Shown piece after piece: positions 1 through 61,495 of a DNA stretch of 64,000 nt. Positions within the stretch are counted from its first letter, which is position 1. Every line of letters begins with the position of its first letter. Under the pieces are notes generated by a model. That model was not told where the DNA came from. It did not search any database and worked only from the letters and a program-made list of their open reading frames with translations. The position numbers and the translations under genes are program-made. The stretch comes from a bacterium (GTDB lineage Bacteria; Hydrothermota; Tepidihabitantia; Tepidihabitantales; Tepidihabitantaceae), in assembly GCA_035505375.1 (NCBI GenBank), contig DATJQV010000075.1, positions 10,673 to 74,672 on the forward strand, written 5' to 3'.

Positions 1-2
1 GC

Positions 3-533: not shown

Positions 534-588
534 CCCCGACCGCCGGATGACCCGATGATTCTATCTACGTCCAAACCGGCCAGGCGGC

Positions 589-616
589 TTGACGCGGCAG
601 AGCACATTGCTAGAAT
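589..616 (+). promoter_or_regulatory. sigma70-like promoter TTGACG-N16-TAGAAT; predicted TSS near 623 gives a ~140-nt leader for the 762 gene
   Basis: -35 TTGACG at 589-594 and -10 TAGAAT at 611-616, with a 16-nt spacer. The same architecture recurs upstream of several other genes in the window. Confidence 0.4.
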
Positions 617-761
617 CTCTCACGCCGAGCCGGAAGACAATCTGCCGTTAGGGTCTGTGAGCGGCTTGCAGGCCGCCGAGTCCGGCCGCGCTCGAAGTCC
701 GGCACTGCCGGGCAGTAGACCCCACGCCGAATTGCACGCACGACAAGCTAAGGAGTACGTC

Positions 762-2921: not shown

Positions 2922-2946
2922 CGCTTGCGTCGCTAGCGAACCTTAG

Positions 2947-4362: not shown

Positions 4363-4420
4363 CCGGCCCCGCTTCCCGTTGCCGGCTTGACGCCATGGCC
4401 GCGCCAGCTAGACTCTAACT

Positions 4421-5845
4421 GTGCGTATAGGCGCTATCACTGGAATCGCAATAGCCCTGCTCCTGCTGCCCGGGCCGGCACAGGCAACGGTCACCTTCCA
4501 CCGCCAGTGGCACTGGTACACACAGGATGCGGGCCGCTCCGTAGCCCAGCTCACAGACAGCGGGTACGTCATCAGCGGCGGCTTGCAGGAATCCACCAGC
4601 ATCTTCGGTGTCGTGCTCGCCCGCACTGATTACCGCGGCGACACGACCTCAGTGAAGCGCATCCTCAATCTGGACGCAAATGGCGGTCTCTCCTGCCGGC
4701 TGTCGGACGGCGGCTACGCGCTGCTGGCCGAGTCCGGCGCGAAAATCCTGGTACGCAAGTACAATGCGTCAGGTGACTCGGTCTGGGAGTACCGGTCTGC
4801 CTGGGGCGGCCAGCTTTCTGCATTCACGCCGACCTTCGACGGCGGTTGCCTTGTGGCCGGCCGGATTCCGGATTCGTCCCCGTACAACATGGGCGCCATC
4901 AAGCTGTCGGCGGACGGCAACCAGCAATGGGCGCGCCACTACCACGAACCGACCATGTCCATGTCATGGGCCTTTGGCGCTGCCCAGACCAGCGACTCGG
5001 GCTACATCCTCTGCGGTGAAGCGACCAACTACTCTACGACCGACGTGCGCCTGGTCCGACTCAAGCCCGGCGGCGACACGGTCTGGACCAGGCTGTACAA
5101 CGGCCCGGTCGGCCCGATGCTCAACGACGTGCGGGAGATGGCGGACAGCGGCTTTCTTGCAGTCGGGTACATGTTCGACACCTTGACCGGCAACCGCGCC
5201 CTCTACATGCTGCGCACGAACTCCCGCGGCGACACGGTCTGGACGCGACACGTCGCGGACACGTTTGCGGCTCGTCAGGCAACAGCCATGTGTGCGACCA
5301 GAGACGGCGGCTTTGCGATCGCCGGGCAGATTGGCTGGACTGACTCCACTCGGGCCTGGCTGGTAAAAACCAACGCCCAAGGCGACACGGTCTGGACCTC
5401 GGTCCTGCCCGGCTCGGGAGATGAGGTCGGCGTTGATGTCGAGCAGACCGCCGATGGCGGCTACGTGGTCGCCGGCACGTGCGACTCGGCCGGCACGCCC
5501 GACAGCCTTCTGCTGATTAAGACCGACTCCCTTGGCCACGTGACGTCCGGAATAGCCGAGGGAAGCCGGCCTTCGCCCGACCACATCGCTTTCCGGGTGG
5601 CGCCCAGCCCGGCGGGCGGGATCGCACGCATCGAATACTCGCTGCCGGGCGGCGCTTCGGCCACCCTGAAAATGTATGATGCCCTCGGCCGGCAGGTGTT
5701 CTCATCGTCCGCCCTCCCGTCTGCGGTCTCCGATTCCCACGCTTCGTCATTCGTCCTTCGAACTTCGTCCTTCTCCCCGGGTGTCTACCTGCTCCGGCTC
5801 GAGTCGAGTCGCGGCTCGGCAGAACGCAAGCTCGTCATCGAGTGA
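4421..5845 (+). CDS. tandem paralog of 2947..4362: secreted beta-propeller-repeat protein with T9SS CTD (apparent GTG start)
   Basis: About 60 % identical in arrangement (TFHRQWHWY, GDTVWTR repeats, ...MYDALGRQVF...GVYLLRL...RKLVIE). The upstream element TTGACG 4387-4392 / TAGACT 4409-4414 would make the mRNA nearly leaderless, so the start assignment is uncertain. Confidence 0.7.
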   Translation: MRIGAITGIAIALLLLPGPAQATVTFHRQWHWYTQDAGRSVAQLTDSGYVISGGLQESTSIFGVVLARTDYRGDTTSVKRILNLDANGGLSCRLSDGGYALLAESGAKILVRKYNASGDSVWEYRSAWGGQLSAFTPTFDGGCLVAGRIPDSSPYNMGAIKLSADGNQQWARHYHEPTMSMSWAFGAAQTSDSGYILCGEATNYSTTDVRLVRLKPGGDTVWTRLYNGPVGPMLNDVREMADSGFLAVGYMFDTLTGNRALYMLRTNSRGDTVWTRHVADTFAARQATAMCATRDGGFAIAGQIGWTDSTRAWLVKTNAQGDTVWTSVLPGSGDEVGVDVEQTADGGYVVAGTCDSAGTPDSLLLIKTDSLGHVTSGIAEGSRPSPDHIAFRVAPSPAGGIARIEYSLPGGASATLKMYDALGRQVFSSSALPSAVSDSHASSFVLRTSSFSPGVYLLRLESSRGSAERKLVIE

Positions 5846-5906
5846 CTTGGCCGCCGGTCTGCCGTCGAAGCGCGCCAGTTAGACATGCCTCACCAGCCCG
5901 CAAGTT

Positions 5907-5924
5907 CCGGCCCTGAGGGGCCGG
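5907..5924 (+). terminator. weak hairpin CCGGCCC-TGAG-GGGCCGG downstream of the 4421..5845 gene
   Basis: 7-bp GC stem found by eye. The following tract (CTTCAATTCC) is only weakly U-rich. Confidence 0.3.
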
Positions 5925-5985
5925 CTTCAATTCCAGTCACTTCCGGCCTCGGCCAGCACCGCCCCGGACACCGCCCCGGACGAGC

Positions 5986-6013
5986 TTGACAGGGCTGCGC
6001 CCGAAGTTAGAAT
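5986..6013 (+). promoter_or_regulatory. sigma70-like promoter TTGACA-N16-TAGAAT for the 6156 gene (leader about 135 nt)
   Basis: TTGACA at 5986-5991 and TAGAAT at 6008-6013. The architecture matches the promoter at 589-616 in front of the paralogous gene. Confidence 0.4.
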
Positions 6014-6155
6014 CGGTTGTCTCTACGAGACTCGGTTTCATGTCAAGGCCTATCGGCACTTGTCGTTCTTCGGGGCCGGTCGTTTCCCAACGCCCGACCC
6101 TGCTGTCGCGCGGAGCGGCGCGGCCGCTGACGCGCACGGGGCTGCGTAGCCGGTC

Positions 6156-8333
6156 ATGACGAAACTGGTTCCCGGCAAGCTCGTACCGGCCTGGGTCGTT
6201 TTGTCCGCGCTTCTTGCCGGCCCTGCCCTCGCTCAACCGGAACCATGGCTGAATCCCGACGGTACAATCCACTATTACGAGGCAGTGGCCGTGCCCGGCG
6301 GCATCACGTGGGACGGCGCCCGCATCCAGGCGCAGAATGACGGCGGCTACCTCGCGACCCTGACCTCCCAGGATGAAAACGACTTCGTCTTCTCTCTGCT
6401 TGATTCGAGTGCGTACTGGTACCGGAGACCCGGGTCCGGCACGCTGGCCGGACCGTGGCTTGGCGGCTACCAGCCGTCCGGTTCGCATGAGCCGGACAGC
6501 GGCTGGCGGTGGGTCACGCCCGAACCCTTCGGCTTTCGCAACTGGTCCACGGGCCAGCCGGACAACGAAGGCAACGAGAACGCGCTCCATTTCGGCGAGT
6601 CGGTCGGCGTGCGGGTTCCAACCTGGAACGACCTGATAAGTACCGATGACTCCATCCGCGGCTACGTGCGCGAGCTCTCGGCCGAAAGGACAACCATCGG
6701 CCTGCTGCAGGACGACAGCGCGGCATCTGCCGGCTACACTATCTTTGCTCCGTGCCTGTCGAATCATACCTACCTGGTCGACGACAAGGGACGCCTCGTC
6801 CACTCGTGGCGGAGCTGGTTCATGCCCGGGCTTGCGGCTTACTTGCTTGAGAATGGCGACTTGCTGCGCTCTGCGAACGTCGGTAACCAGTATTTTTGCA
6901 CTCCCGGCGCCGGCGGTCGTGTCGAGGAGTTCGACTGGAACGGCAACCTCGTCTGGTCCTTCCCGTACTCCGACAGCGTGCACTGCCTGCACCACGACAT
7001 CAAGCGGCTCCCGAACGGCCACGTGCTGATGATTGCCTGGGAACGCAAGACCCGGAACGAAGCCATCGCTGCGGGCCGCAACCCGGCCAGGCTCTGGCAG
7101 GGCATGCTCTGGCCGGACCACATCATCGAAGTGGACCCGTCCACCGACAGCATTGTCTGGGAATGGCACATCTGGGATCACCTGGTACAGGACTACGACC
7201 ATACCAAGGCGAACTACGGGGTCGTGGCCGACCATCCGGAGTTGGTGGACATAAACGCTCTTGCCGCCTGTGACCGCTGGGGCTCGGCCGACTGGAACCA
7301 CACCAACGCGGTTGACTACAATCCGCAGTTCGACCAGATACTCATCAGCGTGCGCCAGCTCTGCGAGGTGATGGTCATCGACCACAGCACGACGACCGAA
7401 GAGGCGCACGGGCACTCAGGCGGCAGACAGGGCATGGGCGGAGATATCCTCTACCGCTGGGGCAACCCCCGGAACTACGACGCCGGGGACGCTTCCGACC
7501 AGAAGTTCTACTACCAGCACAACGCTCGCTGGATCGAGCCCGGTCTGCCCGGTGCCGGGCACATCATGGTTTTCAACAATGGCCGGGATCGTCCCTGCTA
7601 CTTCACCGGCGGACGCCATCCTGAAGACAGCAGCTACTCCACGGTCGAGGAGTTCATCCCCGCCTGCGACAGCGCCGGCGCCTATCCGCGGCCGTCGCCG
7701 TACGAGCCGTTCGGCCCGACCGCACAGAGCTGGATCTACCGCGCCAGCCCGCCGAGCAGCTTCTACACGCCGTACATGGGAGGCGCGCAGAGGCTGCCCA
7801 ATGGCAACACGCTGACCAGCCTTGGTCAACTGGGCACGCTGGCCGAAGTCACCGCCGACACCCACGTTGTCTGGCGCTACGTGAACCCGGTCACGGGATG
7901 TGGCCCCCAGCGCCAAGGCTACGTGCCGAAAGACAGCACGAACTCCGTATTCCGGGCTGAACGTTACGCACCCGACTACCCGGGACTGGCGGGGCGGGAC
8001 CTGACGTCCGGCTATCCTATTGAGCTGTACGGACCGCTGTCCGCCGGTACGAAAGACTCTGAACGTGTCGTAGCCAACGCCCTCCTTCGTGTGAGCCCGA
8101 ACCCGCTTGGTGCCCAAACCACAATCCGCCTCAGCCTGCCGCACGCAGCTCCGGCCGAGCTCGGCATCTACTCGGTAGACGGTCGACTGGTCCGAACGCT
8201 GCCGGCAACCTCCAATCAGGTTGTCTGGAACGGCACCGACAACTCCGGGCAGCGTGTCGGTCGCGGCGTCTACTACTGCCGGCTGCAGTGCGCTGGTTAC
8301 ATTAAGTCGGTGAAGCTAGTCAAGGCCGACTAG
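6156..8333 (+). CDS. secreted protein: signal peptide, C-type lectin-like domain (QPD motif), ASST-like beta-propeller, T9SS C-terminal sorting domain (paralog of 762..2921)
   Basis: Signal peptide MTKLVPGKLVPAWVVLSALLAGPALAQPEPW. CTLD motifs GGYLATLTSQDENDFVFSLLD...WLGG...GWRWV...FRNWSTGQPDNEGNENALHFGE. Propeller motifs HHDIKRLPNGHV and IVWEWHIWDHL. C-terminus ...NPLGAQTTIRLSLP...GIYSVDGRLVRTL...VVWNGTDNSGQRVGRGVYYCRL...KLVKAD. The 492-aa antisense ORF 5937..7415 is rejected. Confidence 0.8.
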   Translation: MTKLVPGKLVPAWVVLSALLAGPALAQPEPWLNPDGTIHYYEAVAVPGGITWDGARIQAQNDGGYLATLTSQDENDFVFSLLDSSAYWYRRPGSGTLAGPWLGGYQPSGSHEPDSGWRWVTPEPFGFRNWSTGQPDNEGNENALHFGESVGVRVPTWNDLISTDDSIRGYVRELSAERTTIGLLQDDSAASAGYTIFAPCLSNHTYLVDDKGRLVHSWRSWFMPGLAAYLLENGDLLRSANVGNQYFCTPGAGGRVEEFDWNGNLVWSFPYSDSVHCLHHDIKRLPNGHVLMIAWERKTRNEAIAAGRNPARLWQGMLWPDHIIEVDPSTDSIVWEWHIWDHLVQDYDHTKANYGVVADHPELVDINALAACDRWGSADWNHTNAVDYNPQFDQILISVRQLCEVMVIDHSTTTEEAHGHSGGRQGMGGDILYRWGNPRNYDAGDASDQKFYYQHNARWIEPGLPGAGHIMVFNNGRDRPCYFTGGRHPEDSSYSTVEEFIPACDSAGAYPRPSPYEPFGPTAQSWIYRASPPSSFYTPYMGGAQRLPNGNTLTSLGQLGTLAEVTADTHVVWRYVNPVTGCGPQRQGYVPKDSTNSVFRAERYAPDYPGLAGRDLTSGYPIELYGPLSAGTKDSERVVANALLRVSPNPLGAQTTIRLSLPHAAPAELGIYSVDGRLVRTLPATSNQVVWNGTDNSGQRVGRGVYYCRLQCAGYIKSVKLVKAD

Positions 8334-8984
8334 CCGCGGCGACGCGACAACAACCACAAAGCTCGCCCCGCGCACGAAGCCGGGGCGAGTTTCTTCCATG
8401 GCGAGGGTCTCGCCCGGGCCTCGAAACAGGGTCGATACCGTGTTCAATATCTCAAACCCGGCCTGTTCGGTCAGGCGCGCCACATCCTCGTACCGATCGA
8501 AATGGGCGTGGCTGAACAAAGGATGGCCCTGCCGGCCCCGTTCGAGGTAGCTCGATCCCCACTTCCCGTCACGGTCGAGATACGCGTTGACCAGCCGGCC
8601 TTCGGGCCTGAGCACTCGCCGGCATTGCCGCAACACCCTTAGCGGGTCTGAAAGAAACTCCCACGTCGTGAGCAGGAATACAGTGCCGAAGCTGGCGGCG
8701 CGGAACACCAGCTCCTCTCCCTCGCCGTACAGCACCTCAATCCCGCGCTGACGCGCCAGGGCGAGCAGGGCCGGGGACGGGTCGATGCCGAACGGGATAC
8801 CCAGGGCTTGAGCAAACCGGCCGGTGCCGACCCCGACCTCGAGCCAGGGCCTGGGGAGATCAGCCATCAGCGGCCGTAGTGCGGCCAGCTCGATCTCGAA
8901 CGCCAGCCGGCCCTTGCCGTCGTACCAGGCGTCGTATCCGGCGGCCAGCGTTTCGAACGGGTCCGATGGTGGAATGACGCTCAT
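8316..8984 (-). CDS. class I SAM-dependent methyltransferase (Methyltransf_11-like)
   Basis: Motif I LEVGVGTGRF and the overall approximately 220-aa Rossmann methyltransferase layout. It is convergent with the 6156 gene and overlaps it by 18 nt. Confidence 0.7.
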   Translation of the reverse strand: MSVIPPSDPFETLAAGYDAWYDGKGRLAFEIELAALRPLMADLPRPWLEVGVGTGRFAQALGIPFGIDPSPALLALARQRGIEVLYGEGEELVFRAASFGTVFLLTTWEFLSDPLRVLRQCRRVLRPEGRLVNAYLDRDGKWGSSYLERGRQGHPLFSHAHFDRYEDVARLTEQAGFEILNTVSTLFRGPGETLAMEETRPGFVRGASFVVVVASPRLVGLD

Positions 8985-9105: not shown

Positions 9106-10314
9106 ATGCGCAACGCTTCTGAACACATGGTGAAGAAAGACCCCCGACCGCTCGAACGTGCAGGCAGAATCGCTGCCGCACTGCTGTTGCTTGCCGGCAC
9201 AGTCGCGGCCGCGCCCGAATTGACCGTGGCCTATCACCTCGATGACCACGCGGCGCCGCTGTTCGACGCCTGCCTGTACCCGAAGGACTTCAGCGCCCGC
9301 TACGGCCTGTTCCTGAGGCAAGCCGAGCCACGGCTGAGTTACTCGCTGATAGACGGGAAGAGCAACACTCTCAAGTTACGCCTGGCCTACTGCGGCAGCG
9401 ATTCGGCGGTCCTTGCCGCGCTGCTATCCGGCCGCGCGCAGGTCGGGATCCTGGCATCCGAGGACGTGCTCGCGGCAGTCATCCAGGGGCAGCCGGTAAG
9501 AATCATAGCTCCACTTCAACGCGCCAGCGACGTGCTTGTCGTCAATCGTTCTGTTCCAGCCAGGAACTGGAAAGAGTTCGCCGCGTGGGCCAAGGCGCAG
9601 AACCGGCCGGTGCTAATCGGCTACCTGGGCCAGTACTCGATGGCAGCACTGGGATTCGCGCAGGCGCTCGAATGCGATGGCATAATCTACTCAACAACCC
9701 TACCCGGCAGCACTCCACACTCAAGCAGGCAGGGGTTTGGCGTCGGGGAACTGGGAACGAAAGACGTCCAGCTCATTCAGGCAGATGACCGTGCTGAGCT
9801 GGCAACGGAGCTCTCGTATGGCAGATTCGACGCGGCCTTACTTCAGGAGCCGGCGGCAACCTGGGTAAGCTCGCTCCGCGGGTGTCCGGCCATCGGCCGC
9901 ACCGACATCCTGCCGCCGGGTCGGTTCGAAGACCGCCCTGGCACTGTCGTTGCCGCGACCGAATCAACCATCGCCACGCGAGGCGATGACGTAGGCCGCT
10001 TCCTTGAACTGATGGCCGTTGCGACCCACTACGCGAACAACCACACTCGGAATACGCTTGCGGCGGTCAACTTGTGGCTAGGACTTTCACCAGAGCTGGA
10101 GAGCATTCCGCTCCGCAGCATGGGCTTCTCCTCGCGGCCGGACTTCTCCTTCACCGACGGCATCTGGAACTGGTACTTCGCCCTGCGCCTGAGAAACGCC
10201 CTGCCGCAGAACCTGGCTGGATACATGGAGGAGAAAGACTGGCTGGGTGTGCCCTATGACTCGCTGCTGCTCATTCCGGCGCTCGACCGCGCCGGCGCGA
10301 GAATCATACGCTAG
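9106..10314 (+). CDS. putative periplasmic substrate-binding protein (NMT1/SsuA/TauA-like fold, tentative)
   Basis: Signal-like N-terminus (AAALLLLAGTVAAAPELTVAYHLDDHAAPLF) and an alternating beta-alpha pattern typical of type-II periplasmic binding proteins. There is no diagnostic motif, so the product call is weak. Confidence 0.5.
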   Translation: MRNASEHMVKKDPRPLERAGRIAAALLLLAGTVAAAPELTVAYHLDDHAAPLFDACLYPKDFSARYGLFLRQAEPRLSYSLIDGKSNTLKLRLAYCGSDSAVLAALLSGRAQVGILASEDVLAAVIQGQPVRIIAPLQRASDVLVVNRSVPARNWKEFAAWAKAQNRPVLIGYLGQYSMAALGFAQALECDGIIYSTTLPGSTPHSSRQGFGVGELGTKDVQLIQADDRAELATELSYGRFDAALLQEPAATWVSSLRGCPAIGRTDILPPGRFEDRPGTVVAATESTIATRGDDVGRFLELMAVATHYANNHTRNTLAAVNLWLGLSPELESIPLRSMGFSSRPDFSFTDGIWNWYFALRLRNALPQNLAGYMEEKDWLGVPYDSLLLIPALDRAGARIIR

Positions 10315-10320
10315 CGGTTC

Positions 10321-10490
10321 GGACAAAGCAGAATTCAGAGATCAGAAACCAGAATGCAGAATGATGGAACCGAGAAGCGAAGCTGCAGCCCGGTCGGCAA
10401 TTCTGATTTCTGGTTTCAGTATTCTGATTTCACTATTGTCCGATGCATTGCTGGTTCTGACTTCTGGCTTCTGAATCCTGAGTTGTCGGA
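10321..10490. repeat. intergenic inverted-repeat element of the GGACAAACCAGAA...TTCTGGTTTGTCC family (REP/MITE-like)
   Basis: GGACAAAGCAGAATTCAGAGATCAGAAACCAGAATGCAGAATG ... CATTCTGATTTCTGGTTTCAGTATTCTGATTTCACTATTGTCC. More than 12 copies of the same family occur elsewhere in the window. Confidence 0.65.
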
Positions 10491-10494
10491 CCGG

Positions 10495-11736
10495 CTACGC
10501 TCTGCGTAACTCGCCAGCGTCTGCAACTAGTTCTGTCGGTCGTCCCCGGCTCATGAAATCGAGCAGGCTCATCGTATAGCCATATGCGCCCGCGTTGAGC
10601 AGGCCCACGAGGTCGCCGGGTTTCGGCATCGGCAGGTGTTCATCCTTGGCGATGCAATCCAGCGGCGTGCAAATCGGGCCGCACACGTCCACCCGCCTCA
10701 ACCCTCGTCCCTCGTCCCCCGCCCCTCGTCCCTCATCTAGCCGGTTGAGAAGTCGGGCCGGATGCCTGATGCGCATGAACACCGGCCGCGAAAACGCGTT
10801 CATGCCGCCGTCGCAGATTGCGAACACCCGGCCCCGTGACTCTTTCACCCGCACCACGCGGGTGACAAACACGCCTGCCTCGGCCACGAGAAATCGCCCG
10901 CTCTCGAAGAGCAACCGGCAGTTTGGATTCTCAGCACGAAACGCCGCCAGCGACGCGGACACGGCCTCGGCCAGCCCGGCCAGGTCCAGCTCCGTGTCGC
11001 CCTCGTTCTGCGGCACGCCGAACCCGCCTCCGAAGTCAACGGTCTCCAGCTTGAACCCGATTTCCAGGCTCAGCCGCCGCGCCAGCTTGAACACGTATTC
11101 GATGTGCGTCCCGAGCCACACCTTGTCCAGCACCTGGCTTGCCGAGTAGACCTGGATTCCCGCGATTCTGGCGTTTTCCAGCTTTGCTCCGGTCACGTCC
11201 GTCACGACGCGCTCCTCGTCGAACCCGAACTTGCTCGGGCCGCCGACCATCACTTCCTTGGCTTCGGGCTGCGACTCCTTCGTGTTGATACGAAGGAGCA
11301 CTCGGGGCCTCACCGCCAAGCTGCGTGCGGCAGCCTCGATCAGTTCGAGGTCTGAGGCCGAATCGGCGACGATTGCGTGAACGCCGGCCCGCAGCACCTG
11401 CTCGACGTCGGCCGCACTCTTGGCCGGCGCCACATAGACGATATTCTCGGGAGTGAACCCTGCGGCAAGTGCCGTCGCGAGCTCCTTCGGCGAGCTGACC
11501 TCGGCGCCGGAACCGGAACGCCTCAGGATGTCGCAGACCGACGGGTTTGGATTTGACTTAAGTGAATAGCAGATGTCGAACGCGGGGAAGCTCTGCTTCA
11601 GCAGCCGTAGCTTCGTCCTGATCGCCGTGGCTGAGTAGAGGTAGAGCGGAGTCTGGTATTTGGCCGCAATCTCCTCCAGCGTCACGCCATCCGCCACGAA
11701 CCGGCCATCCTTCACGAAGAAATCATCAAAGCGCAT
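10495..11736 (-). CDS. PLP-dependent decarboxylase of the Orn/DAP/Arg decarboxylase family (fold type III); most likely diaminopimelate decarboxylase
   Basis: PLP-lysine motif YSLKSNPN (compare YAVKAN). The C-terminal motif VCGPICTPLD resembles the LysA CGPLCESGD motif. The GGGFG glycine loop is present and the length is 413 aa. Confidence 0.75.
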   Translation of the reverse strand: MRFDDFFVKDGRFVADGVTLEEIAAKYQTPLYLYSATAIRTKLRLLKQSFPAFDICYSLKSNPNPSVCDILRRSGSGAEVSSPKELATALAAGFTPENIVYVAPAKSAADVEQVLRAGVHAIVADSASDLELIEAAARSLAVRPRVLLRINTKESQPEAKEVMVGGPSKFGFDEERVVTDVTGAKLENARIAGIQVYSASQVLDKVWLGTHIEYVFKLARRLSLEIGFKLETVDFGGGFGVPQNEGDTELDLAGLAEAVSASLAAFRAENPNCRLLFESGRFLVAEAGVFVTRVVRVKESRGRVFAICDGGMNAFSRPVFMRIRHPARLLNRLDEGRGAGDEGRGLRRVDVCGPICTPLDCIAKDEHLPMPKPGDLVGLLNAGAYGYTMSLLDFMSRGRPTELVADAGELRRA

Positions 11737-11747
11737 ACGCTGCCTCG

Positions 11748-11923
11748 GACAATAGTGAATTCAGAATACTGAAACCAGAAACTAGAACTACCGGCCCCAA
11801 TTCTCTCAGCATGTCGTTGCGGGCATTCTGAATTCTGGTCACTGGCTTCTGACTTCTGCTTTCTCCATCCGCGTTCCTAGAATTCTGCATTGTGGTTTCT
11901 GATTTCTGAATTCTGGTTTGTCC
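11748..11923. repeat. GGACAAACCAGAA-family inverted-repeat element filling the intergenic gap
   Basis: GGACAATAGTGAATTCAGAATACTGAAACCAGAAACTAGAA ... TTCTGCATTGTGGTTTCTGATTTCTGAATTCTGGTTTGTCC. It abuts the stop codon of the DUF364-like gene. Confidence 0.6.
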
Positions 11924-12732
11924 TATGCCCTGCGGTATACCTCGATTGTGCTCGTCCCCTGGAAGATATAGAACGGGAACAATTCGGACACGACCGCATC
12001 CACGCCGATGCTCCGGCAGTACTCCTCGCCGAAGTTGGCGCCGGTCTCGGCGAATACGAGCAGCTTGGTCCCGGCCTTCTTTGCCTCTTCCACGATGAGC
12101 TCAAGCGAATCGGTAGCGATGGTCATGCCGGTGACGATAGCGAGGTCGGACTCACGCACAAGGTCATACGTCCTGGTGCCGTCCTCGACCAGCACGCCGT
12201 GAACCTTGGTGCCGACCGTGTCGCGCTCCATGTCGCTCGCCCGCACGTCGTAGCCGCGCGCCACCAGGTCCCGCACGATGTTCCCCACCAGTCCGACATT
12301 CACCACCCGCGCCGGGCGCGAGCAGATGCCCGAGACCAGTCGCTCGGCCTCATGCAGGATGATCTCGGTCCGCGCGTCAGTCTTCTGTATCGGTGTCCCG
12401 ACCAACTGGAAGCTGGCCGCCGGCCTGCGCTCCATGGTTGCGTAGAGCGAATCCAATGCCGCGATGGAAATGCACGTCTTCTCTCCGACCAGTTCCCGCA
12501 CGTCGTGTCCTACCAGCTCGCGGCCCCGCTGGTCGTCGCCGGTGCAGTAGCAGCAGCCCTGCCCGCGCGTCATCGCCAGCCAGAACGTGTACTTGAATGT
12601 CCGCTCGGCCGGATTGGGCTTGAACGCCAGTTCCACCCTCCATATGCCCCTGACCAGGAAATCCTCTGCTGGCGCCTTCTCCATCCTCTCAAACGCCCGC
12701 TCCCGCAATACGGCAAATATGTCGGTCATCAC
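11923..12732 (-). CDS. DUF364/DUF4213-like Rossmann-fold protein (putative; function unknown)
   Basis: 269 aa with ordinary protein composition, whereas the overlapping plus-strand ORF 11890..12771 is R/H/P-rich. Central VGLVGNIVRDLVARGYDVRASD is a Rossmann-like segment. The family assignment is from memory and is weak. Confidence 0.6.
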   Translation of the reverse strand: MMTDIFAVLRERAFERMEKAPAEDFLVRGIWRVELAFKPNPAERTFKYTFWLAMTRGQGCCYCTGDDQRGRELVGHDVRELVGEKTCISIAALDSLYATMERRPAASFQLVGTPIQKTDARTEIILHEAERLVSGICSRPARVVNVGLVGNIVRDLVARGYDVRASDMERDTVGTKVHGVLVEDGTRTYDLVRESDLAIVTGMTIATDSLELIVEEAKKAGTKLLVFAETGANFGEEYCRSIGVDAVVSELFPFYIFQGTSTIEVYRRA

Positions 12733-12930: not shown

Positions 12931-14259
12931 CTATCGCTCTGCCATCCTCTGCCTCAGCCAATCTCCGAGTTCGGCCGCCAAAGCCTGCTCATGCTCAAGA
13001 TAATTGTGCGGCGCGCCCTCGATGACGACACCGGAAAACGACAGGCAGTTATCAAGGCACTCGGCAATCCCCTCGACGAAGCCTTGCGCCGGGCCGACAA
13101 AGTACTCCTCGACCGTACCGACCGCGAGGAATACGGGCACCTCGACCGCCGCGAGTTCCGGAAACTCCTCCTGGTCGGTGCGGCTGATGTTGAAGATGCC
13201 GGTCAGCGACTTCGGGCCATAGGCTTCAACGAAAGTCCGCGCGGAAACCGGGCCCTCATAGAACCGCGGAGGCATCAACTCCGTCTCCCGCCCCTGCCGA
13301 ACCAATCGTTTGGCATAGGCAAGCGCCTTGGGGAACGTCGCGCCCAACTTCTCATGAATCCAGCCCTGCGTATCAGCCGGAGAAAGCAGGATGAGCCCGG
13401 CGACGCGAGGGTCGCGCGTCCTGGCAAGGTAATGGACGACCTTCATCGCGCCAAGGCTGTGCCCCTGCAGAAACACCTTCCGGCAGCCGCGCGACTCAGC
13501 GAAGTCCACCGCCGCCTTCACATCCGGCAAGCAGTCGCCAAAACGCTCAAACATCCCTCCCACCTGCACATAGTCCAGCCGCTCCGCCACCTTTGGCTTT
13601 TGGCTTTTGGCCTTTGCCTTTTGACTTGAGCCGTCTCCCTCTTTTGTCTCCAGTTCTACATTCTGGTTTCTGGTTTCTGACTTCTGGTTTCTCCGACTCC
13701 GCAGCATGTCTGCAACTTCTGTCTGAGGAAAGTCGAGCTCCGGTTCCCGCTCGCGCAATTCTGAATTCTGGTTTCTGGTTTCTGATATCTGGTTTCTCCG
13801 ACTCCTCAGTACGTCTGCAATATAGTCGTGTCCGCGGTTATTGAACGCCGCAAATGAGATGCCGCTCCGTCGGCATGCGTCCGCCGCGTAGTCTATGAAC
13901 CGATTCTCATAGAAGTTCCCATCCCACCCGTGAACATGAACCAGGCAGAAGGGACTAGGGGCTAGGGGCTGGGGATTAGGGCCCGAAAACCTCGTCTCTT
14001 GTCCCTCGTCCCTCGTCCCAGCGGGTTGGTACATCCCACTGAGTTCCAAGCCATCGTCGGTCACGATGCGACACAGCTCGCCGGGTATGCTGCGAAAACG
14101 GGGACTGTACCGCGCCGTGTTTGATGCAGGCGCTCCGAGGGACTGTCCCCGCTTTCGAAGTAAGCTTCTCGCGTCGCTCCGTGGACGTGTCCCCTCCCTG
14201 GGACTGTCCCCATTTTCGCGGTGCCGGGACTGTCCCCGCTTTGGAATTGGTGTCTTCAC
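12931..14259 (-). CDS. alpha/beta-hydrolase-fold protein (GHSLGA nucleophile elbow) interrupted in-frame by a ~200-bp repeat-element insertion; true start probably downstream of the annotated M
   Basis: N-terminal hydrolase segment LVHVHGWDGNFYEN (HG oxyanion motif) and C-terminal segment VFLQGHSLGAMKVVHYL (GxSxG). Between them lies LRSRRNQISETRNQNSELRE...LRSRRNQKSETRNQNVELETKEGDGSSQKAKAKSQKPKVAE, which is the translation of two GGACAAACCAGAA-family repeat copies plus AAGCCAAA repeats. The extreme N-terminus runs through GGGACTGTCCC repeats. Confidence 0.55.
   Translation of the reverse strand: MKTPIPKRGQSRHRENGDSPREGTRPRSDARSLLRKRGQSLGAPASNTARYSPRFRSIPGELCRIVTDDGLELSGMYQPAGTRDEGQETRFSGPNPQPLAPSPFCLVHVHGWDGNFYENRFIDYAADACRRSGISFAAFNNRGHDYIADVLRSRRNQISETRNQNSELREREPELDFPQTEVADMLRSRRNQKSETRNQNVELETKEGDGSSQKAKAKSQKPKVAERLDYVQVGGMFERFGDCLPDVKAAVDFAESRGCRKVFLQGHSLGAMKVVHYLARTRDPRVAGLILLSPADTQGWIHEKLGATFPKALAYAKRLVRQGRETELMPPRFYEGPVSARTFVEAYGPKSLTGIFNISRTDQEEFPELAAVEVPVFLAVGTVEEYFVGPAQGFVEGIAECLDNCLSFSGVVIEGAPHNYLEHEQALAAELGDWLRQRMAER
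13625..13830. repeat. two tandem copies of the CAGAAACCAGAA repeat element plus AAGCCAAAAGCC microsatellite, embedded in-frame in the hydrolase CDS
   Basis: TTCTGGTTTCTGGTTTCTGACTTCTGGTTTCTCCGACTCCGCAGCATGTCTGCAA occurs twice about 95 bp apart. It is preceded by GGCTTTTGGCTTTTGGCCTTTGCC. Confidence 0.6.
14064..14235. repeat. cluster of GGGACTGTCCC(CGCTTT) repeats plus a CTCGCGTCGCTCCGTGGACGTGTCCC unit; the same family reappears at 61300..61495
   Basis: GGGACTGTACCGCG, GGGACTGTCCCCGCTTTCG, GGGACTGTCCCCATTTTCG, GGGACTGTCCCCGCTTTGG and CTTCTCGCGTCGCTCCGTGGACGTGTCCCCTCC. Compare CGTTCTCGCGTCGCCCCGTGGACGTGTCCCTTCG at 61455-61490. Confidence 0.55.
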
Positions 14260-14394: not shown

Positions 14395-14525
14395 CCAGAA
14401 ACGGCGGAATCCCTGTGTGCTGTATCCTGTCTACTGTCTACTTCGGGCAGTATGCAGCATACAGCACGCAGCATGCAGGTCGTATCCCTGAATGCTGTAT
14501 TCTGTCTACTGTCTACTTCGGCAAG
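14395..14525. repeat. direct repeat of GCTGTATYCTGTCTACTGTCTACTTCGG (2 copies) flanking CAGCATACAGCA-type motifs; family shared with 25445..25560, 25990..26075 and 39218..39245
   Basis: tgctgtatcctgtctactgtctacttcgg ... cagtatgcagcatacagcacgcagcatgcag ... tgctgtattctgtctactgtctacttcgg. Confidence 0.5.
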
Positions 14526-14543
14526 CATCCCGATTCGTGCCCA

Positions 14544-25444: not shown

Positions 25445-25560
25445 AGGTAGTCGCACGGCCTTGAGGCAGCATGCAGTAGGCAGTACACAGCACACAGGCA
25501 TCAAGACGACGGTCCTTTCACGCCGGCGATAGACGCTATCAGGCCATGAAGCATCCCAGA
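25445..25560. repeat. CAGCATACAGCA / GCAGTAGGCAGTACACAGCA repeat block (same family as 14395..14525 and 25990..26075)
   Basis: gcagcatgcagtaggcagtacacagcacacagg ... cagcatgcagcagacagcatacagtatacgg. Confidence 0.45.
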
Positions 25561-25604
25561 GCAGCATGCAGCAGACAGCATACAGTATACGGGGAAGAGA
25601 GTCG

Positions 25605-25989: not shown

Positions 25990-26075
25990 GCCAGTATACA
26001 GTATGTAGCATACAGCATCCAAGAGCCGCTCCCTGCATACTGCATACTGTATGCTGTATGCTGCAAGGAAACGCT
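25990..26075. repeat. ATACAGTATGTAGCATACAGCA ... TGCATACTGCATACTGTATGCTGTATGCTGCA palindromic repeat block
   Basis: Internal inverted symmetry (CAGTATACAGTATG / CATACTGTATGCTG). Related to the blocks at 14395 and 25445. Confidence 0.45.
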
Positions 26076-27409: not shown

Positions 27410-27458
27410 CCGGACAAAGCAGAAACCAGAATTCAGAGACCAGAAACCAGAAATGCCC
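27410..27458. repeat. GGACAAAGCAGAAACCAGAATTCAGAGACCAGAAACCAGAA copy of the intergenic element family
   Basis: Direct match to the family core. Confidence 0.55.
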
Positions 27459-27692
27459 GAACGGGAAAGACTTAGGACACGACGGCGGGGACGAAGTCAA
27501 AAGGCAGCAGCCAAGAGCCAAGAGTCAAGACCGGAGATCTGGAACGATGAACGGGCGAACTCCGGGTTCACCGAGAGGACGAAAAGAACTGAGGGCTTAG
27601 TGACTCTCTCCGGCTGGGCATAACTTCTTCACACTCAGTCGGTTAAGCGTTATCGCGTTGCGGATAATCCGCATATAGGGGTCGCCTGGGGG

Positions 27693-29334: not shown

Positions 29335-29478
29335 GGCGGACGCGGAGAAACCAGAAATCAGATATCAGAGAACTGAAAGCAGAATTGACCGAGGCTCGGA
29401 CAGAACGCAGTGAGGGCGGACGCGGAGAAACCAGAAATCAGATATCAGAGAACTGAAAGCAGATTCGGGTGTGCCCGG
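29335..29478. repeat. two direct copies (~78 bp period) of GGCGGACGCGGAGAAACCAGAAATCAGATATCAGAGAACTGAAAGCAGA
   Basis: Near-identical copies start at 29335 and 29413. The core belongs to the CAGAAACCAGAA family. Confidence 0.65.
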
Positions 29479-29517: not shown

Positions 29518-29937
29518 GTGGATACGCTAGACAGACTGGATGACAGGCTGGACATGGACAGCAGGCTGCTGCACTTCGCGGCAGATGTGATCGCGCTGGC
29601 TCCTCGTCTTCAGCGGTCGCCGACTGGAAGGTACCTTGTGGGACAGATGGTACGCGCGGGCACTTCAGCCGGGGCCAACTTCCAGGAGGCGCGCGGGGCC
29701 GAGAGTCGGGCTGACTTCGTGCACAAGATGCAAGTCGTACTCAAGGAGCTGCGCGAGACCGAATACTGGCTCAGGCTCCTCAGAGAGGCCAAGCTGATGC
29801 CATCGGATCTTCTAGCGGGCCCGCTCGCGGAAGTGGACGAACTGATTCGGATCGTCGTCAAGTCGGTGGTAACGGCGAAGACAAGACATTACAATGCGGG
29901 CGGCGGAGAAACCAGAAATCAGATATCAGAGAACTGA
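29518..29937 (+). CDS. four-helix-bundle protein (23S rRNA intervening-sequence protein family), second copy
   Basis: GQMVRAGTSAGANFQEARGAESRADFVHKMQVVLKELRETEYWLRLL matches the family pattern. The C-terminal 12 aa (GGETRNQISEN) are the translation of the adjacent repeat element. Confidence 0.6.
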   Translation: MDTLDRLDDRLDMDSRLLHFAADVIALAPRLQRSPTGRYLVGQMVRAGTSAGANFQEARGAESRADFVHKMQVVLKELRETEYWLRLLREAKLMPSDLLAGPLAEVDELIRIVVKSVVTAKTRHYNAGGGETRNQISEN

Positions 29938-30046
29938 AACCAGAAATGTCCGAAGCCGGCTTTCTGATTTCTGGTATCTGATTTCTGACTTCACCTTTGT
30001 CCGTGTTTGCATTTCTGGTATCTGGTTTCTGAATTCTGGTTTGTCC
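29899..30046. repeat. inverted-repeat element GGCGGAGAAACCAGAAATCAGATATCAGAGAACTGAAACCAGAA ... TTCTGGTATCTGGTTTCTGAATTCTGGTTTGTCC
   Basis: Overlaps the 3' end of the four-helix-bundle gene and the annotated 5' end of the LCP ORF. Confidence 0.6.
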
Positions 30047-30057
30047 GTTCCGCTGCT

Positions 30058-31296: not shown

Positions 31297-31313
31297 TTCA
31301 CGCGACCCGAGCA

Positions 31314-31411
31314 GGACAATTCAGAAGTCAGATATCAGAGACCAGAAACCAGAGAGCCGGCTCCGGGCATTTCTGATTTCACTTTTCTGGTTTCTGACTT
31401 CTGGTTTGTCC
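31314..31411. repeat. GGACAATTCAGAAGTCAGATATCAGAGACCAGAAACCAGA ... TTTCTGGTTTCTGACTTCTGGTTTGTCC inverted-repeat element between the LCP gene and alaS
   Basis: Family core with inverted arms. Confidence 0.6.
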
Positions 31412-31422
31412 GGACCCGCAGG

Positions 31423-34146
31423 CTAGGCCTGCGCAGATGCGAGCGCTTTGACCGCGCTCCGGAACGCTTCCTGCCCCGCGCCGAGCTTGTCGAGCTGGCC
31501 ACCGCCTTCGGCCAGGTCCGGCTTGCCGCCACCGCCGCCGCCCATTGCCGGGCCGACCGTCTTGGCCAACTTGCCCGCGGGAAGTGATGCCTGCAGGTCC
31601 GGGCTGACGAATACGACGTAGCGGATGCGCGGTCCCTCACCACCGGTGAGCAGTCCCGCGTACTTCTCTTTCAGCAGTTCGCGCACGCGGTCGGATACGA
31701 GCCTGAGCTCGCCGGTCTCGAACCTGGCGAAGTGGCTCACGACGGCCTTGAAGCCGCCGACGTCCTCGGGCTTGGCCGCCAGCTCGTCGCCGGCGACGCG
31801 CGCCAGTTGTGCTGACAGGCCGGCCAGCCTCTCGCCCTGTCGCTTCAGTTCCTCGCCCAGCCCTTCGACCTTCTTGACCAGCGTCTCCTCGGTCCCGCCC
31901 AGATGCTCAGTGAGCTGGGTCACGATGGCGCGCTCGGACGCCGCGTTCTCAAACGCCGCCCTGCCGACCAGCGCCTCGATGCGCCGGATGCCGGCGGCCA
32001 CGCCGGTTTCCGAGATGATGCGGAAAAGCCCGATCTGGCCCGTGCTCTTCAGGTGCGTACCGCCGCAGAGTTCCATCGAGAAGTCACCGACCTTCACGAC
32101 CGTCACCTTCTCGCCATACTGGTCACCGAAGAACGCCAGCGCGCCCATCGCCCGCGCCTCGTCCAGCGGCGTGTTGCGCAGGGCCTGGACATGCCGGTCG
32201 GCCACGACCTGCTCGTACACCGCCCGCTCCACGGCCAAGACTTGCGCCCGCGCCATCGGCTCGAACGCCGCGAAGTCGAAGCGCAGCCGTCCGGGCTCGA
32301 CCAGCGAACCTTCCTGTTTCACATAATCGCCAAGCGTCTTCCGCAGTGCTGCATGCAACAGGTGGGTGGCGGTGTGCGCCCGCTCGATTTCGCGCCTTCG
32401 CTCCGTGTCCACCGCCGCGAAGACCTTGCCGAGGGACATGACCGAACCGTCCGACGGTTCGGATCGTGTCCCGAGGTCCCCCAAGCTCCCCCGCACCAGC
32501 TTCGCCTTGCAGGCAGGCACGCCCTGCTTGTAGTAGGTATTCAGCACTTCGAGCTCGAATCCCTCGCCGATAATCTTCCCGGTGTCGCCGACCTGCCCGC
32601 CCATCTCGGCGTAGAACGGGCTCTTCTTGAGAACGACTTCATACAAGCGCGGGACATGACCGAAATCCTCCTGGGATTTCGGATCGTGTCCCAAGCCGTC
32701 CAACGGTGCGAAGCTCACTATCTCGGTGTCGACCTCGTCGCTGTCGTAGCCGACGAACTCCCAGTCGGCGGCACCTTCGTGCGCCGGACCGGTCGTGCTG
32801 ATGAATGTCTCTTTGCGGCTGCGCTCGCGCTGTTCCTGCATCGCCCGGTCGAATCCGGCCGTGTCGAGCTTCACTCCGGCATCTTCGGCCAGTTCCTTCA
32901 CGAGCTCGATGTGGAACCCGAAGGTGTCGTGCAGCTTGAACAGGTCGTCGCCGGGAATGAGTCCGTCGCGCCTGTGCGCGTCCAGCACGTTCTGCCAGCG
33001 CTCCAGCCCGGCATCGAGGGTACGCAGGAACCGCTCCTCTTCCGACTTGATGATAAGCGCCGCCTGCTCGCGCTTGGCCACGACTTCCGGGTACCACTGC
33101 CGCATCAACTCGACGACCTCGCCCGAGACCTTGTAGAGGAACGGCTCAGCTACGCCCTGCCGGTGGGCGAAGAGCAGCGCCCGACGCAGGATGCTGCGCA
33201 GAACGTAGCCCCGTGCCTCATTTGAGGGAATCACGCCATCGGCGATGGCGAAGGTCAGGGCGCGCGCGTGGTCCGCCGCGACGTATAGCATCGAAGGGAC
33301 ATGACCGAAATCCGCCGGGGATTTCGGATCGTGTCCCGAGACGCCTCGCCCTTCGCCCTTCGCATCCATATTGAGCATCTTTGCCGTCGCCTTCACGATA
33401 GGGGCGAAGAGGTCAGTCTCGAATATCGTCTTCTTCTTCTGGGAGACCATGGCCAACCGTTCCATGCCCATGCCGGTATCGATGCCGCGGTTCTTCAGCG
33501 GCTCGCGCTTACCGTCGGGCAACTGGTTGTACTGAGGGAAGACGATATTGTAGACTTCGCTGAAACGGTCGCAGTCGCAGCCCGGCGCGCAGTCCGCCTT
33601 GCCGCAGCCGAACTCGGCCCCGAGGTCCACGTAGATTTCCGAGCAGGGACCGCAGGCTCCGCCGCCCCCGACCGGGCCCCAGAAGTTGTCCTTGGCGCCG
33701 AGGCGGACGACCCTGTTGGCCGGCAGGCCGACCTTGGTGCGCCAGACGTTGTAGGCCTCATCGTCCTCGGTGAAGACCGAAGCGTACAAGCGCTCCGCGT
33801 CGAGCTTCACGACCTGGGTCAGGTATTCCCACGCCCAGGGAATCGCCTCGTGCTTGAAGTAGTCGCCGAACGAGAAGTTACCAAGCATCTCGAAGAATGT
33901 GCCGTGGCGCGGAGTCTTGCCGACCTGGTCGAGGTCGGACGCGCGCAGGCACTTCTGGATGGAAGTCGCCCGGCGATAGGGCAGTTCGACCGTTCCCGCC
34001 CAGTACGGCTTGAACTGGACCATGCCCGCGCTGGTAAAAAGCATGGTCGGGTCGTCCCTCGGAATCAGGGACGAACTCGGTACGACCCGGTGGTCCCGCT
34101 GGCCGTAAAACTCAAGGAACGTCCGACGCAGCTCGCGGTGATTCAT
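31423..34146 (-). CDS. alaS: alanine--tRNA ligase (AlaRS) carrying three in-frame 40-42-bp palindromic insertions
   Basis: N-terminal RDDPTMLFTSAGMVQFKPYW, with FGDYFKHEAIPWAWE and HTATHLLHAAL (editing domain). C-terminal DHHA1-like region is present. The length is 907 aa. Inserted peptides are GHDPKSPADFGHVP, GHDPKSQEDFGHVP and GTRSEPSDGSVMSL. Confidence 0.9.
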   Translation of the reverse strand: MNHRELRRTFLEFYGQRDHRVVPSSSLIPRDDPTMLFTSAGMVQFKPYWAGTVELPYRRATSIQKCLRASDLDQVGKTPRHGTFFEMLGNFSFGDYFKHEAIPWAWEYLTQVVKLDAERLYASVFTEDDEAYNVWRTKVGLPANRVVRLGAKDNFWGPVGGGGACGPCSEIYVDLGAEFGCGKADCAPGCDCDRFSEVYNIVFPQYNQLPDGKREPLKNRGIDTGMGMERLAMVSQKKKTIFETDLFAPIVKATAKMLNMDAKGEGRGVSGHDPKSPADFGHVPSMLYVAADHARALTFAIADGVIPSNEARGYVLRSILRRALLFAHRQGVAEPFLYKVSGEVVELMRQWYPEVVAKREQAALIIKSEEERFLRTLDAGLERWQNVLDAHRRDGLIPGDDLFKLHDTFGFHIELVKELAEDAGVKLDTAGFDRAMQEQRERSRKETFISTTGPAHEGAADWEFVGYDSDEVDTEIVSFAPLDGLGHDPKSQEDFGHVPRLYEVVLKKSPFYAEMGGQVGDTGKIIGEGFELEVLNTYYKQGVPACKAKLVRGSLGDLGTRSEPSDGSVMSLGKVFAAVDTERRREIERAHTATHLLHAALRKTLGDYVKQEGSLVEPGRLRFDFAAFEPMARAQVLAVERAVYEQVVADRHVQALRNTPLDEARAMGALAFFGDQYGEKVTVVKVGDFSMELCGGTHLKSTGQIGLFRIISETGVAAGIRRIEALVGRAAFENAASERAIVTQLTEHLGGTEETLVKKVEGLGEELKRQGERLAGLSAQLARVAGDELAAKPEDVGGFKAVVSHFARFETGELRLVSDRVRELLKEKYAGLLTGGEGPRIRYVVFVSPDLQASLPAGKLAKTVGPAMGGGGGGKPDLAEGGGQLDKLGAGQEAFRSAVKALASAQA
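32433..32472. repeat. palindromic element GGGACATGACCGAACCGTC-CGACGGTTCGGATCGTGTCCC inside alaS (copy 1)
   Basis: Perfect or near-perfect hairpin with GGGACA/TGTCCC termini. Translated in-frame on the minus strand. Confidence 0.6.
32651..32692. repeat. palindromic element GGGACATGACCGAAATCC-TCCT-GGGATTTCGGATCGTGTCCC inside alaS (copy 2)
   Basis: 42 bp (14 codons), in-frame. Confidence 0.6.
33295..33336. repeat. palindromic element GGGACATGACCGAAATCC-GCCG-GGGATTTCGGATCGTGTCCC inside alaS (copy 3)
   Basis: 42 bp, in-frame. It adds about 14 aa relative to the alignment expectation before the conserved VAADHxRA segment. Confidence 0.6.
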
Positions 34147-34206
34147 TGCGGTTATTTTATAGAGAAACTCAGGCTACGCAACAGGGCACACCGCGTCATG
34201 CGGAAT

Positions 34207-34290
34207 GGGACAAACCAGAAGTCAGAAACCAGAAGAGTGAAACCAGAAATGTCCTGAACCGAATTCCTTGTTTCTGGTCTCTGCGCTCTG
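34207..34290. repeat. GGGACAAACCAGAAGTCAGAAACCAGAAGAGTGAAACCAGAAATGTCC ... TTGTTTCTGGTCTCTG element between alaS and recX
   Basis: Family core. Confidence 0.55.
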
Positions 34291-34308
34291 CGCTAGCCGA
34301 GCCGATTA

Positions 34309-34932: not shown

Positions 34933-34944
34933 GGAGTCAGACCA

Positions 34945-35041
34945 GACAAATCAGAAATCAGAAACCAGAAAAGTGAAATCGGGATCAGCAGGAGCCGGCT
35001 TTCTGGTTTCTGGTATCTGGTTTCTGGTTTCACTATTGTCC
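34945..35041. repeat. GACAAATCAGAAATCAGAAACCAGAAAAGTGAAATC ... TTCTGGTTTCTGGTATCTGGTTTCTGGTTTCACTATTGTCC element between recX and recA
   Basis: Family core with inverted arms. Confidence 0.6.
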
Positions 35042-35049
35042 GAGACCGC

Positions 35050-61299: not shown

Positions 61300-61495
61300 C
61301 GGGAAACAGGGACTGTCCCGCGCTGAGTACGACGCAAGCGCTCCGAGAAACTGCGCTCGTTTTCCGCCATCTCAGCGACAGTCCCCATTTCCCAAGACGC
61401 AGAGGGCGGCCGTAGCCGCCCTCTCGAAGCTCGGATTGGGGCCACTCCCGCGACGCGTTCTCGCGTCGCCCCGTGGACGTGTCCCTTCGTACTAC
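61300..61495. repeat. second locus of the GGGACTGTCCC / CTCGCGTCGCYCCGTGGACGTGTCCC repeat family (compare 14064..14235)
   Basis: GGGACTGTCCCGCGCTGAG...GCGCTCCGAGAAACTG...CAGCGACAGTCCCCATTTCCC...CGTTCTCGCGTCGCCCCGTGGACGTGTCCCTTCG. Confidence 0.5.

Follow-up and report, generated by a model that had tools for sequence, protein, structure and literature searches.

Among the small palindromic repeats of bacteria, several described systems resemble the subject of this study, a 40-42-nt hairpin element present in three copies inside the alanine--tRNA ligase gene alaS of a member of candidate division WOR-3, on a 64,000-nt stretch of DNA (contig DATJQV010000075.1, positions 10,673 to 74,672) which is called the window below. 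In the IS200/IS605 group, where Y1 HUH chemistry acts on folded single strands, strand-specific insertion is known for the IS608-type Y1 enzymes, and the irregularities of the imperfect hairpins of IS608 and ISDra2 are read by the enzyme. Another kind of palindrome, RPE-1 of the Rickettsia palindromic elements (RPEs), has a length of 100-150 bp and is known only from Rickettsia. Sequences of the repetitive extragenic palindromic (REP) kind, whose doublets (REPINs) fold into one hairpin, are short imperfect palindromes of many copies associated with a single Y1 transposase, the REP-associated tyrosine transposase (RAYT), a system reportedly treated in the studies of Nunvar 2010, Bertels and Rainey 2011 and Ton-Hoang 2012.

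Regarding palindromes inside genes, RPEs stand in frame in functional genes and add loop peptides to the proteins (Ogata et al. 2000). REPs were also found inside genes in several species, tRNA synthetase genes included, and RPE-4 and RPE-6 were recognised as CGTC-type REPs (Di Nocera et al. 2013, PMC3733652). The same study described RAYT-like terminal inverted repeat (TIR)-associated tyrosine transposases (TIRYTs) in so-called TIRtrons, which are flanked by terminal repeats sharing GGGGWSAS, and some TIRYTs were accompanied by moderately abundant repeat families. Most TIRYTs were later assigned to subclass 2.1 of TnpA-Y1, next to whose genes REP-like sequences were not found (Quentin et al. 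2018, PMC6006769).

In this study we show how the alaS element compares with these systems. In our judgement the three segments are most probably gene-less, non-autonomous hairpins similar to REPINs or to miniature transposable elements with inverted repeats (MITEs), derived from the ends of TIRYT-type Y1 transposons, probably moved in single-stranded form by a transposase acting in trans, and retained solely at places where they are in frame and tolerated. Each copy consists of two inverted terminal-repeat-like arms, GGGACACGATCC and GGGACATGA-CC, around a freely varying stem-loop. By sequence comparison the arms, and in many copies an outer stem, are homologous to the extended terminal repeats of a highly conserved Y1 HUH gene, which is IS200-like, RAYT-related and corresponds to the TIRYT or TIRtron type.

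The host open reading frame (ORF; coordinates are collected in the table below) matches solved structures of alanyl-tRNA synthetase (AlaRS) at E = 7e-124, and a database protein 100% identical to its product is named alanine--tRNA ligase. As a preliminary description of this DNA had stated, the rest of the enzyme is intact, keeping its catalytic motifs, VAADHARA, the editing motifs HTATHLLH and ELCGGTH, and the C-terminal GGGG motif. Three imperfect palindromes of one shared orientation lie in frame inside the gene, at sites that we call A, B and C in the order of the protein. The coding strand reads GGGACACGATCC...GGTCATGTCCC at site A; the reading frame gives GHDPKS(P/Q)(A/E)DFGHVP for the two 42-nt copies (sites A and B), and the 40-nt core of site C, GGGACATGACCGAACCGTCCGACGGTTCGGATCGTGTCCC, is read in another frame, with a peptide that is also given as GTRSEPSDGSVMSL. 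The inner stem of the site C copy is CGAACCG/CGGTTCG against CGAAATCC/GGATTTCG in the other two, pairing being retained, and the loops are 3-5 nt long. The copies had earlier been placed at 32433, 32651 and 33295 in the same orientation, which holds except that the third starts at 33296, and the 18-mer with a spacer of N4 that had been given for all of them fits two copies, the first having the different inner stem just mentioned. That the copies are read in frame as extra peptides agrees with the ORF at all three sites.

The palindrome pattern had no match in 100 shuffles of the window, and when the whole 64 kb was searched with a covariance model, filters being switched off, no copy beyond the three was detected. 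There are thus three copies in the 2.7 kb of alaS against none in the remaining 61 kb, and the flanking syntenic DNA of relatives (about 82 kb) has only two further copies; this enrichment is due partly to the choice of loci and partly to the inheritance of an old site B copy. Folded as RNA, each copy forms one hairpin, of -25 to -26 kcal/mol for the mRNA strand and of -30 kcal/mol for the other one, in which a C/A mismatch turns into a G.U pair, and the z-scores of the three RNA hairpins are -4.3 to -6.6. As single-stranded DNA the copies fold at about -16 to -17 kcal/mol (z-scores -3.5 to -4.5); folding of the RNA or DNA had been proposed as a check, and a hairpin is seen in both forms. A scan of 31300-34300 with Rfam gave no relevant match at E <= 10.

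Comparison with orthologues shows that the three segments are lineage-specific insertions, because close WOR-3 orthologues have or lack copies at four loop sites. Among 48 AlaRS orthologues (65-100% identity, 856-907 aa), 14 carry element-derived peptides at about aa 268, 487, 556 and 573, and those without inserts have short, clean loops at these positions; one orthologue, P0003, carries three copies. A codon alignment of DNA from seven orthologues found site B filled in five (the window, L001, L131, L132 and L134) and empty in two (L003 and L133), the empty site reading GAC GGC CTG with the junction between GGC and CTG. Site B is also met in decayed, internally deleted or nested versions (P0004, P0007, P0031 and P0002): the copy in P0007 has lost an internal part, and other insertions are nested in those of P0004 and P0031. 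The site A copy is common to the window and P0005/L133 and is absent from L003, L132 and L134; relative to the Aquifex AlaRS it corresponds to an alignment gap between the catalytic and tRNA-recognition domains. Site C was filled independently in the window (40-nt core, net gain of 45 nt) and in L001 (42-nt core, net gain of 48 nt), in the same loop but in different frames. Just upstream of the window's site C core stands GCTTGGGGAC, which may be what is left of an older copy's 5' end, as it is similar to the GCTT-GGGAC junction that the long form shows at site B and in copies of the WOR-3 type. The gene thus appears to have accumulated several insertions, which would be translated as loop insertions of 15-16 residues.

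As to the placement of the inserts in loops, the alignment agrees with what had been expected, and the mapping onto a structure does so in part. In an AlphaFold model of AlaRS all three inserts lie in coil between secondary-structure elements, with a predicted local distance difference test (pLDDT) below 50, but the model is poor (mean pLDDT 61.8, predicted template-modelling score (pTM) 0.36) and many other segments look likewise, which makes coil placement weak evidence for loops. A separate observation at site A is that L001 and L131 have, in the same variable loop (aa about 262-272), a different 7-residue insertion, REARGEE, which is seen in some orthologues and is built of a GAGGCGA-type simple tandem repeat.

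The element is by no means confined to WOR-3. We scanned one genome per species (596 Gb) for GGGACAYGAKCC-N14-30-GGTCRTGTCCC, for which about 2 chance matches are expected by our own estimate, and obtained at least 120 genome loci in metagenome-assembled genomes (MAGs) of more than 10 phyla. Among the listed matches are Armatimonadota, Acidobacteriota/Aminicenantes, Desulfobacterota, Planctomycetota, WOR-3, Bipolaricaulota, Bacillota, Alphaproteobacteria, Chloroflexota, Myxococcota and Actinomycetota; copies also occur on eight viral contigs, and several genomes have at least 5-14 matching loci each. Across the family the arms GGGACACGATCC/GGTCATGTCCC are constant, and the degenerate positions of the pattern are nearly always occupied by the same bases, whereby the C/A mismatch and a bulged T are conserved. 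The inner 7-bp stem varies between genomes, with pairing in 97% of cells and with covariation that amounts to 145 double-sided changes vs 40 in shuffles (0/500). An extra 8-bp outer stem, typically GGAATTCG...CGAATTCC where present, has roughly 60% of its positions paired, positions and not copies being counted. With respect to the arrangement of copies, an Acidobacteriota MAG has four head-to-tail hairpins with a 58-nt period (L052, 5190-5414), the first three with a shortened 3' arm, and one Acidobacteriota MAG has head-to-head pairs about 30 nt apart (L017, 2817-2947; L118, 5024-5158), reminiscent of REP dimers or bacterial interspersed mosaic elements (BIMEs).

Full-text search of the searchable literature for the strings of the arms and the terminal repeats returned only unrelated primers or nothing. 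As a family the element is new and broad; palindromic repeats standing in frame in housekeeping genes have already been published. The preliminary description had implied a situation without precedent, of which the three copies in one housekeeping gene stand, while in-frame REPs in tRNA synthetase genes have been on record before (PMC3733652).

Every source of these copies is a metagenome assembly, and palindromic chimeras or adapters might in principle produce such repeats. We give this explanation by assembly or sequencing artefact a negligible probability: independent assemblies of JGI, ENA and NCBI, made from different samples, share the same insert at an identical codon, the listed matches include long-read MAGs and one complete WOR-3 chromosome, the inserts are always in frame, and the copies evolve coherently, compensatory stem changes included.

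How the copies stand relative to genes was tabulated for 139 of them from many genomes, as had been suggested earlier, taking as confident an ORF that is long and has the third-position GC (GC3) signature of coding DNA. By this measure confident ORFs hold 68 copies, no ORF spans another 42, and the assignment of the other 29 is ambiguous; every copy in low-GC genomes is non-coding. The coding copies are found in both orientations (40 vs 28) and in five of the six frames, in which the arms are free of stop codons; the absent frame is the only one with a stop codon in an arm (GGG ACA TGA). Hosts confirmed by Pfam, with the element within domains, are pyruvate:ferredoxin oxidoreductase (POR), peptidase M20, an amidohydrolase and a beta-propeller protein. 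The repeat therefore works at the level of DNA, and inside genes it persists only where the frame is kept. The earlier claim of mobile palindromic DNA giving lineage-specific in-frame insertions is supported by the orthologues with empty sites, by the same DNA read in different frames and by the family in many genes and genomes. As a side observation, an 860-aa open frame in L098 (2051-4630) joins solute-binding and ABC permease domains with a hairpin at about aa 544 between them, which may be read-through or a gene fusion made by the element.

These frame data bear on a wholly different account, in which the repeated GHDP...GHVP motif is a functional peptide module of AlaRS under protein-level selection and no mobile DNA is involved. 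The peptides of sites A and B are alike and are conserved in several orthologues, which speaks for such a module; but the third copy gives an unrelated peptide from the same DNA, this DNA encodes peptides of five types in proteins that are not related and is found outside genes as well, synonymous positions are conserved, and the inserts are absent from most orthologues. Already contradicted by the frame data, the account is highly improbable.

The putative enzyme was found from reading one locus, L111 of a Magnetovibrio MAG; all-against-all clustering of the ORFs of at least 120 loci had given no shared transposase. Here a 212-aa ORF lies between two inverted hairpins, which occupy the usual positions of terminal repeats, and its TGA stop codon falls within a hairpin arm. 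The protein belongs to Y1_Tnp (PF01797, E = 1e-10) and scores 68.5 bits with the NCBIfam RAYT model (REP_Tyr_transpos), under the cut-off of 80 bits; its family is very large, with 60-77% identity across phyla, and the gene looks multi-copy, being on many contigs of about 1 kb. The gene of L035 is 73% identical to that of L111, and the homologues in L035 and L172 each have a hairpin just upstream. L111 further contains a second, truncated copy of the Y1 gene (1144-1473; aa 1-110, 91% identical) and a terminal-repeat-like GGGGACACGTACC (1480-1510), both just upstream of the intact one, together with a further hairpin (1042-1081).

Among 85 homologous loci, about three quarters have terminal repeats at one or both ends. 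The 5' terminal repeat, GGGGACAC(C/A)ATACTTAATT (ending (C/A)ATAC), lies about 54 nt before the start codon, and the inverse repeat ends about 12 nt after the stop codon. The extended terminal repeat that bounds the Y1 gene, GGAATTCC-GGGGACAC-CATAC, is matched by each half of the hairpin; with the outer flank, the consensus of the transposon ends is ggAATTCcGGGGACACCATAC and that of the element halves GGAatccGGGGACACGATCC. Closer variants of the terminal repeat exist, for example GGGGACACGAACCGAT in L157. In view of this end homology and of the closer variants, the most plausible view of the hairpin is that of a pair of transposon ends joined with the gene left out.

When the system is set against TIRtrons, the agreement is that a Y1 HUH gene is bounded by GGGGWSAS repeats, here GGGGACAC/GGGGACAG in most of the 85 loci, and that the element halves match the transposon ends over about 20 nt. 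A G stands at -1 of the 5' arm in 76/139 copies, and about half of the copies (74 5' halves) have GGGGACAC as the arm with its preceding G; in the window copies the base before the arm is T or C, and GGGGWSAS fits at 7/8 positions. The difference is that subclass 2.1 was reported without REP-like neighbours (PMC6006769), whereas here a compact doublet forms a hairpin in which mismatch and bulge are conserved, many uncultivated phyla contain it, and about half of its copies are inside genes.

With REPs and REPINs the element shares short imperfect palindromes in many copies, a doublet folding into one hairpin, a related single Y1 transposase and in-frame intragenic copies, tRNA synthetase genes included (PMC3733652). 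In one MAG, that of L111, inverted hairpins are clearly seen on both sides of the gene, an arrangement that may be likened to a REPtron. Unlike REPs, the element lacks a general GTAG or CGTC foot tag, each of these being near the ends of at most 12/136 copies (< 10%), is not predominantly extragenic, and has a likely partner gene that falls short of the RAYT equivalog model and usually carries plain terminal repeats. The parallel with RPEs drawn in the preliminary description holds for in-frame insertion into functional genes and added loop peptides, but the element is not an RPE: it is a REP/REPIN-like hairpin with TIRYT-type ends, without the CGTC tag, 40-42 nt long and in unrelated free-living phyla, and tag and length set it apart. 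The IS200/IS605 ends and their miniature derivatives (palindrome-associated transposable elements, PATEs) would be similar in their chemistry and are so in that neighbouring copies tend to share orientation, here 24 same vs 10 opposite (p = 0.024, the pairs not being fully independent), which would fit strand-specific insertion as in IS608-type enzymes; they have, however, two different subterminal hairpins and a defined target tetranucleotide, as opposed to one hairpin of two near-identical arms and no defined target. A classical MITE of a DDE transposase is unlike the present element, whose flanks are inverted and not direct repeats, and the comparison of empty with filled sites offers at most an ambiguous 2-nt GC repeat as a target duplication. 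In sum the element behaves as a REPIN or MITE belonging to a Y1 transposase would, and repeats of this sort are already known to colonise genes in frame. Resemblance to attC, dif or CRISPR repeats was rejected on consensus and arrangement, by reading of the sequence; mimicry of the tRNA-Ala acceptor stem (G3:U70-like pair) was dropped, the wobble being at position 7 and on the antisense strand.

The mechanism that we propose would be as follows. A transposase supplied from elsewhere would recognise the folded single-stranded hairpin, of which the conserved mismatch and bulge would mark the strand, and would cut and rejoin it at new sites, probably at replication forks. Insertions would land anywhere, and in genes the survivors would be those that add whole codons, carry no stop and sit in permissive loops.

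Several points weigh against this proposal. No consistent target-site duplication, target or cleavage motif could be defined, either in the flanks of the copies or between filled and empty sites. Neither in the window nor in about 250 kb of WOR-3 DNA examined, the other WOR-3 loci included, was a Y1 transposase found, and a search for one by way of the closest terminal-repeat variant, that of L157, led to Planctomycetota. The hairpin is near only 3 of about 85 transposase loci, two of which were found via the hairpin itself, and among 80 transposase loci from metagenomes the hairpin model matched once, adjacency being the exception. What is more, the transposon terminal repeats are symmetrical whereas the arms of the element differ by C/T and a 1-nt bulge, and the translation of the inserts is read solely from the reading frame. 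The suggested link between enzyme and element thus comes from three loci and, mainly, from the homology of the ends.

It may accordingly be asked if the element is moved by another agent, either a DDE transposase acting on double-stranded terminal repeats, as for a classical MITE, or recombination or template switching between palindromes. The small number of loci behind the Y1 association, the lack of a transposase in the WOR-3 DNA examined and the clustering of three copies in one gene, as local copying could give, speak for it. We nevertheless consider it quite unlikely, as the flanks show no fixed-length direct target duplication of the kind left by DDE MITEs, conservation of the mismatch and bulge extends across phyla, which is what an enzyme that recognises a folded strand would lead one to expect, and no other transposase family recurs among the listed 120 loci.

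The conservation of site B poses a different question. A 51-nt block is 96% identical among the five orthologues, the genes otherwise being about 80% identical, and 67/68 of its third codon positions are identical vs 62% in the rest of the gene (P = 3e-13), with the variable positions mostly in or beside the loop. Such synonymous conservation is not predicted for a purely selfish, merely tolerated insert, and it belongs with the points raised above against our proposal; the uniformity would reflect either selection in place or conversion that keeps the copies alike. One explanation is that the hairpins, at least that of site B, were exapted and are maintained for the host or for a host-element partnership, possibly as an mRNA hairpin pacing translation at a domain boundary, as a functional protein loop, or as a site kept uniform by transposase-driven gene conversion. 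Besides the conserved block, the stable hairpin of the mRNA strand (-25 kcal/mol) and the long-lived, vertically inherited populations reported in REPIN studies are in its favour. Still, site B is decayed, deleted or nested in the four orthologues named above, many orthologues have no copy and hence show it to be dispensable, the lack of orientation preference in other genes argues against a general role at the RNA level, and the peptide changes with the frame. Exaptation is in our opinion unlikely.

Apart from the element itself, the window has other repeats. The preliminary description had matched the termini of the element to GGGACTGTCCC repeats elsewhere in the window; these are not copies of it (covariance model E = 1.9) but correspond to the arm found in hairpins of a second type, CCGAAAGC-GGGGACAGTCCC, and the two types are related families. 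The second type stands in frame in alaS of the orthologue P0002, with the peptide KGDSPSKQRVGLAAGQPPFSD, and is nested within the decayed site B copy of P0031. The window also contains long intergenic hairpins of tandem 7-nt units, on both flanks of alaS among other places, with CAGAAAC/CAGAAGT on one arm, TTCTGGT on the other and the ends GGACAAA...TTTGTCC; for two of them the folding energy as DNA is -22.8 and -23.4 kcal/mol (z about -5.6). At 1-8400 of the window there are several repeated segments, each about 300 nt long, 73-84% identical and spaced by about 1.48 and 5.4 kb (D1, D8-D15), which suggests tandem paralogous genes.

Table. Coordinates of alaS, the hairpin copies and other repeats (window positions unless a locus is named)
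Feature	Position	Strand	Covariance model (bits)	Remarks
alaS (alanine--tRNA ligase), 907 aa	31423-34146	minus		host ORF of the three elements
Site A copy, 42-nt hairpin core	33296-33337	minus	64.1	aa ~270-283, peptide GHDPKSPADFGHVP
Site B copy, 42-nt hairpin core	32651-32692	minus	63.0	aa ~488-501, peptide GHDPKSQEDFGHVP
Site C copy, 40-nt core	32433-32472	minus	58.6	aa ~560-572, peptide GTRSEPSDGSVMS
Full 48-nt (16-codon) site B insertion	32647-32694	minus		TT + core + GCGC; from codon alignment of filled vs empty orthologues
GCTTGGGGAC	32476-32485	minus		just upstream (gene direction) of site C core
Arm motifs GGGACTGTCCCC(G/A)(C/T)TTT(C/G)G	14139-14149, 14200-14210, 14226-14236, 61309-61319; L224 about 9650-9720; L225			
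Hairpins of 7-nt units	31312-31412, 29903-30048, 34206-34290, 34942-35043, 10319-10497, 11757-11925, 13651-13801, 27410-27463, 29342-29475			
Second 7-nt-periodic hairpin-like repeat family	14409-14528, 25466-25593, 25991-26073			GCAGCAT/ACAGTAT-type units (D18, D20)

As for its meaning, the advance lies in a new broad family and in its link to a likely enzyme, not in a new principle. The TIRYT branch, roughly TnpA-Y1 subclass 2.1, which is poorly understood and was reported without REP-like partners, gains a candidate miniature partner in the form of a precise, testable hairpin, and a single repeat family with invariant arms is seen to be spread through many uncultivated phyla. Being intragenic about half the time, unlike classical REPs, it is a recurrent source of loop insertions in proteins, an essential tRNA synthetase included, and such inserts can confuse alignments, phylogenies and structure predictions of MAG proteins. 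A bolder possibility, which we put forward tentatively and regard as rather doubtful, is that the hairpins are maintained and not simply tolerated, TIRYT-type HUH enzymes sustaining a cross-phylum population of translation-compatible hairpins that repeatedly writes loops of 15-16 residues into the proteins of uncultivated bacteria. If this were true, the conservation of site B would represent a host-level function or continuous homogenisation by the transposase.

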